Assembly (NCBI GenBank): GCA_951406725.2
Contig: OX597821.1
Location: 67,518,001 to 67,582,000, forward strand
Length of the DNA: 64,000 nt
Origin: Octopus vulgaris
Taxonomy: Eukaryota
Direction: 5' to 3'
Under the pieces are notes generated by a model. The model saw only the letters and a program-made list of their open reading frames with translations. It ran no database searches and was not told where the DNA came from. Positions 3,583-57,177 of this stretch are shown here, one piece after another. How positions within the stretch are numbered: position 1 is the stretch's first letter; each line of letters begins with the position of its first letter. Position numbers and translations under genes: made by a program.

Positions 3583-3790
3583 AAACTTAATCCAAACAAG
3601 AAAGCATAAAAAAACACAACAACGCGAAGACGTGGAACAAATATAGTATTATTGGACGTTCAGGAAAGAAGGAAAGAAGGAGGGTTTAACGTTTCGAGCG
3701 GAGCTCTTCGTCGGAAACATAGGAGAAGGAAAGATCCAGTGAAGGAATGACAGAGGGAAAAAAATCGCCAACGGTACACACGCGGTCACA
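3583..3790 (-). mobile_element. About 200-bp HHR-bearing non-autonomous element (PLE-terminus-like) inside (TA)n
   Basis: Reverse complement aligns along its length to 56930-57135; flanked by (TA)n on both sides; contains the HHR-like motif at 3684-3718. Confidence 0.7.
3684..3718 (-). ncRNA. Minimal hammerhead ribozyme-like motif (core variant CCGACGA)
   Basis: GUUU-CCGACGA-A-GAGC(UCC)GCUC-GAAA-CG-UU-AAAC: helix I GUUU/AAAC, helix II GAGC/GCUC, palindromic ACGU helix III, GUU site; U4 changed to C. Confidence 0.65.
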
Positions 3791-3802
3791 TTTTAAAAGA
3801 CC

Positions 3803-3865
<63 letters not shown>

Positions 3866-5006: not shown

Positions 5007-5018
5007 TAAGGCGGCGTG

Positions 5019-5347
5019 AAGGCGCATGGCTCAGTGATTAGAGCGTCAAGCTTACGATCGTGAGTTTGTGAGTTCGAATCCTGGACCAGGCTGCTTATTG
5101 TGTTCTTGAGCAAGACACTTTATTTCACGTTGCTCCAGTTAACTCAGCTGTAGAAATGAGTTGCGACGTCACTGATACCAAGCTGTATCGGTCTTTGCCT
5201 TTCCCTTGGGTAACATCAGTGGCGTGGAGAGGGGAGGCCGTTATGCATGGACGACTGCTAGTCTTCCATAAACAAACTTGCCTGGAATTGTGCCTGGGAG
5301 GGTAACTTTCAAGGTGCAATCCCATAGTCAGTCATGACCGAAGGGGT
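5019..5347 (+). mobile_element. tRNA-derived SINE, head C (CORE-like) + tail Z
   Basis: TGGCTCAGTGATTAG / GTTCGAATCC boxes and CORE-like TGTGTTCTTGAGCAAGACACTT...CAGCTGTAGAAATG; reverse-complement match to 5581-5913; TSD-like ctaaggc(g/a)gcg at 5006-5016 and 5353-5363. Confidence 0.85.
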
Positions 5348-5580: not shown

Positions 5581-5913
5581 AAAAACCCCTTCGGTCATGA
5601 ATGACCATGGGATTGCACCTAGAAAGTTACCCTCCTAGACACAAGTCCGGGCAAGGTTGTTTATGGAAGACCAGCAGTCGCCCATGCCTACCAGCCTCCC
5701 CTCTCCACGCCACCGATGTTATCCAAGGGAAAGACAAAGGTCGATACAGCTTGGCACCAGTGACGTCGCAACTCATTTCTACAGCTGAGTGAACTGGAGC
5801 AATGTGAAATAAAGTGCCTTGCTCAAGAACACAACACGAAGCCCGGTCCGGGATTCGAGCTCACAACCTCACGATCGTAAGCTCGACGCTCTAACCACTG
5901 AGCCATGCGCCTT
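5581..5913 (-). mobile_element. tRNA-derived SINE, head C + tail Z, with 13-bp TSD
   Basis: Inverted copy of 5019-5347; TSD cttttgctattaa at 5568-5580 and 5914-5926. Confidence 0.88.
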
Positions 5914-6025
5914 CTTTTGCTATTAATACCATTATTATTATCCATAAAAGAACCCAGACCTCTTCTTTTCTTACTAGTTTTGTTCTTATTTTCTTTCTTC
6001 TTATCATAGTCATATTCATACACCT

Positions 6026-6452: not shown

Positions 6453-6873
6453 CTCTTTTACTCTTTACTCTTTTACTTGTTTCAGTCATTTGACAGCGGC
6501 CATGCTGGAGCACCGCCTTTAGTCGAGCAACTCGACCCCGGGACCTTATTGTTTTGTAAGCCCAGTACTTATTCTATCGGTCTCTTTTGCCGAATCGCTA
6601 ACTAACGAGGACATAAACACACCAGCATCGGTTGTCAAGCAATGCTAGGGGACAAACACAGACACACAAACACACACACGCATATATATATATATATATA
6701 TACATATATACGACGGGCTCCCTTCAGTTTCCGTCTACCAAATCCACTCACAAGGCTTTGGTCGGCCCGAGGCTAGAGTAGAAGACACTTGCCCAAGGTG
6801 CCACGCAGTGGGACTGAACCCGGAACCATGTGGTTGGTATAAAAGCTACTTACCACACAGCCATTCCTGCGCC
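6453..6873 (-). mobile_element. SINE family A, full length (tRNA-like head, internal (TA)n(TG)n, CR1-like tail)
   Basis: Matches 13213-13642, 22674-23088 and 48081-48490; head TGGCTGTGTGGTAAG...GGTTCAGTCCC; tail ends in (TAAAAGAG)n. Confidence 0.9.
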
Positions 6874-6959
6874 TATTGTATTATTACTATTAATTTTTTT
6901 TATCTATTTATCTTTTTTTTAAATAAAAGCCCAGCTTATTTTTCCGGATATTATGGAGA

Positions 6960-56929: not shown

Positions 56930-57134
56930 GTGTGTGACCACGTGTGTATCGTTGGCGATTTTCTTTATCCGTCTTCTCTTCTTTGGACTTTTCCTTTTTC
57001 TATATTTCTGACGAAGAGCTCCGTTAAACCGAAACGTTAAATCCTCTTTCTTTCTTTCCTTTCCTGAGGGTCCAATAACACTATGCTTGTTTCACGTCCT
57101 CGTGTTGTGTTTTCTCTTTGTTCATCTTTGGATT

Positions 57135-57135
<1 letters not shown>
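56930..57135 (+). mobile_element. About 200-bp HHR-bearing element, homologous to 3583-3790
   Basis: Motif at 57004-57042 AUUU-CUGACGA-A-GAGCUCCGUUAAACC-GAAA-CG-UU-AAAU; flanked by microsatellites. Confidence 0.7.

Positions 57136-57177
<42 letters not shown>

Follow-up and report, generated by a model that had tools for sequence, protein, structure and literature searches.

The window, a 64,000-nucleotide stretch of the Octopus vulgaris genome (contig OX597821.1), holds three hammerhead motifs, each inside a 190–220-nt fragment with (TA)n at its end (Table 1). All three lie where the initial annotation had placed them and have the helix I ends it gave; the strand of the first, which it had left unstated, is minus. 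Read 5′ to 3′, the motif at 3684 is GUUU / CCGACGA / A / GAGC-UCC-GCUC / GAAACG / UU / AAAC, that at 35778 (plus strand) CUUU / CUGUAGA / A / GAGC-GUAG-GCUC / GAAACG / UA / AAAG, and that at 57004 (plus strand) AUUU / CUGACGA / A / broken helix II / GAAACG / UU / AAAU. A descriptor demanding a 4-bp helix I, a core with at most one mismatch and GAAACGUH matched exactly these three sites in the window, against none in each of 100 dinucleotide shuffles. Across the (TA)n-rich genome (2.8 Gb, 227 contigs), a looser core pattern gave 42,428 matches against 76 for a reversed control, which sets the number of related motifs at no less than 42,428. Rfam models miss this minimal form: no hammerhead appeared among the 150 of 261 window matches listed, nor among 112 matches (E up to 10) in three further stretches that included a canonical copy (L248, L061 and L179), the sole matches being microsatellite-driven microRNA models. 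A repeat search across the window was dominated by simple repeats.

Table 1 Features of the three hammerhead-bearing fragments, in window coordinates
Feature	Position	Strand	Remarks
Family A1 Penelope-like element: 5′-truncated 3′ end, a piece of the terminal repeat	3587..3803	−	between (TA)n runs; 95.4% to L207 across 217 nt
Minimal type I hammerhead, U4C core	3684..3718	−	helix I 3718–3715 with 3687–3684; helix II 3706–3696
Predicted cut of the U4C hammerhead	between 3688 and 3687	−	
Short inverted copy of the upstream part of a family B terminal repeat	35641..35700	−	head to head with the forward copy; read from sequence
Family B Penelope-like element: 5′-truncated 3′ end, terminated by (TA)n	35715..35907	+	77% to each of the two L158 terminal repeats
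Minimal type I hammerhead, A6U core	35778..35813	+	helix I 35778–35781 with 35810–35813; helix II 35790–35801
Predicted cut of the A6U hammerhead	between 35809 and 35810	+	
Family A2 element (subfamily with canonical core): 5′-truncated, aged 3′ end	56933..57137	+	77–81% to L220 and L207; A2 diagnostic flanks
Decayed minimal hammerhead; core canonical, outer helix I position with a private A	57004..57042	+	
Private lesion breaking helix II	57016..57030	+	one match in the 2.8-Gb genome, the window itself; hammerhead-like fold +5.1 kcal/mol

All three belong to the minimal type I hammerheads and come from terminal repeats of Neptune-type Penelope-like retrotransposons (PLEs). For family B, a longer copy (L094) carries reverse transcriptase (RT) and endonuclease pieces, and a protein search found loci with the motif mostly 1.1–1.5 kb downstream. 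In 4 of 20 long-frame stretches (L157, L158, L160 and L162) the motif stands on both sides of the open reading frame (ORF), 4.4–4.5 kb apart. L157 has one 1,098-amino-acid frame with an RT (Pfam RVT_1, E 8e-8, above the cut-off) and an endonuclease region, flanked on each side by an A6U motif; GIY-YIG hits fell below the cut-off (E 0.002 and 0.011), and the GIY-YIG motif is visible. None of these 20 stretches held a fully intact family B element. For family A, L220 ties the canonical A2 motif to an ORF, L207 (subfamily A1, the 3684 type) has a long 3′ untranslated region (UTR) in common with L220 and an RT piece upstream, and L219 led to subfamily A3. Twenty stop-free RT and endonuclease frames of 883–1,009 amino acids were present in 19 of 20 A3 stretches chosen for long frames, some of them identical over the last 800 residues, and about 100 A3 endonuclease hits had one common score, marking this subfamily as very young. 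Full elements of these families, whose proteins are 68% identical, have one motif per terminal repeat, 4.4–6.2 kb apart, a single ORF with RT followed by a C-terminal GIY-YIG domain, a CX2-5CXXC linker and (TA)n targeting. By described features rather than by a tree, they resemble the Neptune and Nematis PLEs of Craig et al. 2021 (PMC8557442, excerpt) in the C-terminal GIY-YIG domain, CX4CXXC linker, DKG motif, (TA)n targets, and tandem and inverted arrangements. Inverted 5′-truncated copies such as the one at 35641 are a PLE arrangement already described there.

We had also considered a retrozyme or short interspersed element (SINE) identity, which was dropped because ORF-bearing partners were found. 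A non-LTR retrozyme would consist of tandem 150–400-nt non-coding repeats with canonical type I hammerheads; the copies here are dispersed, truncated ends of coding elements, and the tandem units measure 6.2 kb.

Further observations concern the elements themselves. In L227–L231 intact 6.2-kb A3 units stand head to tail, three in one array and two in another, which points to copying of more than one unit length. The A3 3′ UTR (L233 5200–8100; L219 2600–5200) is about 2.9 kb long, mostly (CA)-rich and microsatellite-like, and is carried with the element. L246, an intact-ORF A3 element whose two terminal repeats both have the canonical core, is a natural revertant usable as a control. In L157 (1273–5700) the upstream terminal repeat is of one subfamily (U7/U17) and the downstream one of another (C7/A17); recombination, or insertion next to an older copy, could account for this.

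The initial annotation described a different lesion in each window copy and allowed that CCGACGA or CUGUAGA might be family consensus rather than decay. The broken helix II at 57004 is a true lesion and that copy is decayed, and the window's own solo copies are probably inert; U4C and A6U are inherited by thousands of copies, and CCGACGA and CUGUNGA proved to be the family consensus. With a pattern leaving the core free, CCGACGA (U4C) accounted for 5,866 of 10,042 exact family A matches. Among 18,846 family B matches, CUGUNGA (A6U) made up 15,730 and the canonical core 180. Cores tracked flanks in 30 sampled family A copies (CC with AAAC, CU with AAAU); most of the canonical-core B copies sampled were set in flanks of the A6U type, and a small, old CUGAUGA group stood by itself. 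The fragment at 35715 has the flanks of the B subfamily with A at position 7. Canonical matches number 5,023: CUGANGA, or a U3–A8 swap of it, is present in A2, in A4 and in old subfamilies of B, and is replaced in A1 and A3 (U4C) and in most of B (A6U). Among the first 100 of the 42,428 matches listed, 83 had variant cores by hand count, outnumbering canonical ones.

The youngest intact elements carry U4C: CCGACGA made up 33 of the 35 motifs in A3 intact-ORF stretches. In the young B subfamily, 21 of 23 52-mers were identical. A flank-only tree (66 rows, at most five per subfamily plus outliers) supports a ladder in B and sets young A3 on a long branch. Older relatives with other helix II loops (L276, L279, L271, L182 and further genome matches) mix canonical and U4C cores, so U4C may occur in more than one lineage. 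In contigs from runs labelled organisms C, D and E the A6U core stretch occurs with no other letter, and one organism E contig covers the U4C core with one other letter, downstream of the core. No position 6 variant was listed in this comparison, which is uninformative because known position 7 variants were likewise absent from the listing. The pyrimidine tract before the motif may still mark a 3′ splice site, a reading we considered; position 7 is free to vary, and the contigs had no listed joints.

For the outer pair of helix I, the three-way compensatory covariation proposed initially from G-C, C-G and A-U in the three copies did not survive a wider comparison. A hand count on the first 100 family A matches listed, out of 7,392, gave 82 G-C, 14 G·U, 4 A·C and no A-U; with A-U absent there, the pair at 57004 is a private change on the G·U subfamily. 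The swap between G-C and C-G is real and represents a single event between families A and B. In 13 subfamily representatives 99% of cells were paired, helix II was invariant, only the outer helix I pair (one of nine) changed on both sides, and A3 had a U·U mismatch in helix I. One two-sided change from one event, together with the A3 mismatch, makes the covariation argument weak.

Better evidence of selection than the helix I pairs lies in the A6U family, in variation restricted to positions 7 and 17. We sampled 57 B copies with a detector that tolerated four mismatches and did not select for the hammerhead pattern. Polymorphism was confined to positions 7 (28 U, 12 C, 11 A, 6 G) and 17 (32 A, 25 U), and position 6 was U in 55. 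A free position 7 and a non-G position 17 are the consensus in Fig. S3 of PMC4209133 (excerpt); here, the majority sequences of all 12 subfamilies have U, A or C at position 17 and in no case G. The palindromic, loop-less helix III (ACGU) and an NUH cut triplet are present, and the unpaired base between positions 9 and 10.1 and the G10.1–C11.1 pair are invariant in the 13 subfamily representatives. The extra A after the core, which the initial annotation had seen in all three copies, is indeed there, but is an already published hallmark of PLE minimal hammerheads (PMC4209133, excerpt). Other terminal repeat blocks are also conserved within family B, and the constraint is therefore not unique to the motif.

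In most copies the sequence continues through the motif, and a share of U4C-family copies begin within 13–16 nt after the predicted cut. We surveyed 5′ ends with a (TA)4–gap–anchor pattern, taking distinct loci in the first 100 matches listed per set and scoring A3, A1 and young B by script. Among the matches listed, 33 of 34 A3 loci start at +1 to +13 after the predicted cut (range scored, −17 to +13), and 30 of 31 A1 loci start at +2 to +16, with one at −1 and none further up. Young B (A6U) gave 41 loci among the matches listed: 19 at +1 or later, 5 at −1 and 17 further up (Fisher p 8e-5 and 1e-5). Hand counts among the matches listed gave 33 downstream and 10 upstream for older B subfamilies (one ambiguous locus left out), and 19 downstream and 9 upstream of 28 for the canonical-core control A2, which would be expected to cut best but resembled the A6U families; the canonical core therefore does not give the sharpest edge. 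Because truncated copies have no core, we assigned their family by the downstream anchor; full motifs with CCGA made up 19 of 22 for the A1 anchor and 27 of 29 for the A3 anchor.

A 26-mer just after the cut in young A3 had 790 matches; 22 were without C17, and 21 of those begin there in (TA)n. These 21 copies at the cut compare with 4 and 6 at two control sites of equal TA microhomology (p about 1e-4). A 30-nt upstream control interval held 14 A3 loci; counting reverse-strand loci, A3 had 6 there against 54 across the cut, and the counts for A1 were 54 against 179. Among ORF-bearing stretches with a resolved start, no full-length copy started at the upstream cut.

Our preferred reading, which we hold with slightly better than even confidence, is that the window motifs are leftover PLE 3′ ends and that U4C and A6U are inherited family states still cutting slowly as paired motifs. 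Judged from sequence, at least one of the changed cores likely still self-cuts. Pairing of the ACGU palindromes between the two motifs of a transcript would form helix III, with a cut after position 17, following the dimer model published for PLE motifs (PMC4209133, excerpt), in which small PLE hammerheads cut as dimers (review PMC6765202, excerpt). Cutting would be partial, with U4C cleaving part of the RNA, and the 3′ piece might sometimes be reverse-transcribed into (TA)n, which would give the observed 5′-end pattern. A6U may be slower or of other use; its activity is less sure, since it keeps the constraint without a clear cut signal. Natural precedents exist: U4C in a viroid is reduced in vitro with activity enough in vivo, and A6C in a phage is low but detectable, under 0.1 per min (PMC3088659, excerpt). 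In a mutational scan every single change in the CUGA turn was low in activity (PMC9901934, excerpt).

A bolder reading, to which we give distinctly less credence, is that two lineages independently swapped the canonical hammerhead for slowed U4C and A6U cores and then out-spread canonical forms, because partial cutting would leave enough full-length template. The 5′ ends of copies would then be a fossil record of germ-line cleavage by a core that standard searches reject.

It is rather unlikely, in our estimate, that U4C still cuts and A6U no longer does, the A6U motif persisting for a structural role or as a binding site for protein, perhaps as a rod with a U6–A15.1 pair. The B families have no sharp 5′-end edge, predicted folds of all intact-motif B subfamilies pair U4-G5-U6 with ACG, none of the seven B subfamilies has a majority sequence in which U6 has returned to A, and position 6 changes are strongly damaging (PMC3088659, excerpt). 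The weak edge does not show inactivity, because canonical A2 shows the same one; moreover, it is a catalytic motif, and not a rod fold, that follows the rule seen here, in which just positions 7 and 17 vary and G is absent at 17.

A similarly low probability attaches to the idea that neither variant cuts. The hammerhead would be eroding in both lineages (in A from canonical to U4C and on to U4C with a broken helix I, in B from canonical to A6U), and the edge would come from RT pausing at an overlapping hairpin. Lowest-energy predicted folds do differ from the hammerhead, and the youngest family has the weakest hammerhead fold: in A3 a hammerhead-like fold reaches −1.3 kcal/mol against −8.8 kcal/mol for the lowest-energy hairpin, which is closed by G5–C17 with its base exactly at the predicted cut. 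Given this base and the U·U mismatch in helix I, RT pausing could give the same edge. Naiad PLEs have, besides, spread without canonical hammerheads (PMC8557442, excerpt), and the strongest edge does not come from the canonical control. Yet the A2 hairpin is nearly the same as that of A1 (−7.7 vs −7.2 kcal/mol) with a much weaker edge, the hairpin of the young A6U family is at least equally stable (−10.8 vs −8.8 kcal/mol for A3) with no edge at its base, and the remaining catalytic positions are fixed across 12 subfamilies despite flank divergence. The edge does not follow hairpin energy, a point in favour of cleavage over polymerase pausing but short of proof.

That the motif is under no selection, with neutral changes in a few master elements (which could fix any change) and conservation from recent common descent, fits the single two-sided pair change among nine pairs, but we consider it very improbable: families A and B keep the motif block almost unchanged while their flanks barely align, motif changes along the B ladder are confined to position 7 (about five times) and position 17 (about three), and our samples suggest that core positions change less than flank positions.

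The hammerhead class itself is already known, and the family-wide U4C and A6U cores would be the new part. With the metazoan PLE minimal hammerheads of Cervera and De la Pena 2014 (PMC4209133, excerpt), the octopus motifs have in common the place in the terminal repeats of an RT and GIY-YIG element, the extra base between 9 and 10.1, G10.1–C11.1, a loop-less palindromic helix III, a 3–5-bp helix I and a majority of solo, truncated copies. The nearest row of Fig. S3 there is the Acropora digitifera Neptune motif, which likewise starts with CUGACGAA, ends its helix in GCUC and has a CGUC context at the cut triplet. The Fig. S3 rows compared begin with CUGA or UUGA, none with U4C or A6U, whereas variants here outnumber canonical cores and occur in the youngest elements. 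U4C and a position 6 variant (A6C) are among the natural variants of Perreault et al. 2011 (PMC3088659, excerpt), which are single full-length ribozymes with tertiary contacts, in contrast to the thousands of minimal, dimer-dependent motifs here; A6U is not named in the text searched of that paper. A search of the PMC8557442 supplement for the motifs gave no match, and excerpts of PMC7229834, PMC6962438 and bioRxiv 10.64898/2026.07.22.740005 added nothing on U4C or A6U cores.

Our literature searches found no report of A6U or U4C hammerheads, of these core strings, or of octopus PLE hammerheads. Work by Lunse, Weinberg and Breaker from 2017, reportedly (by its title) on PLE-associated small hammerhead variants, may list such cores, and Arkhipova 2017 may bear on novelty.

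For PLE hammerheads, cleavage in vitro is low, and in vivo evidence was lacking in the literature excerpts consulted. The octopus genome holds a natural series of canonical, U4C, U4C with weakened helix I and A6U motifs; together with the young intact-ORF U4C elements, this makes it directly askable whether transposition needs cutting. The 5′ ends of truncated copies offer a genome-only readout, and searches demanding CUGANGA miss most motifs here, as in the 83 of the first 100 matches listed.

The window has other repeats. Two 330-nt tRNA-like, SINE-type copies (5018–5347 and 5585–5914) face each other, 90% complementary, around a second common repeat. A near-perfect 79-nt hairpin at 42670–42748 scores against microRNA models below their cut-offs and is probably an inverted repeat. 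Another dispersed repeat is present as 400-nt copies at 6462–6874, 22671–23072, 25395–25828 and 48080–48484, with 81–88% identity to the L128 stretch.
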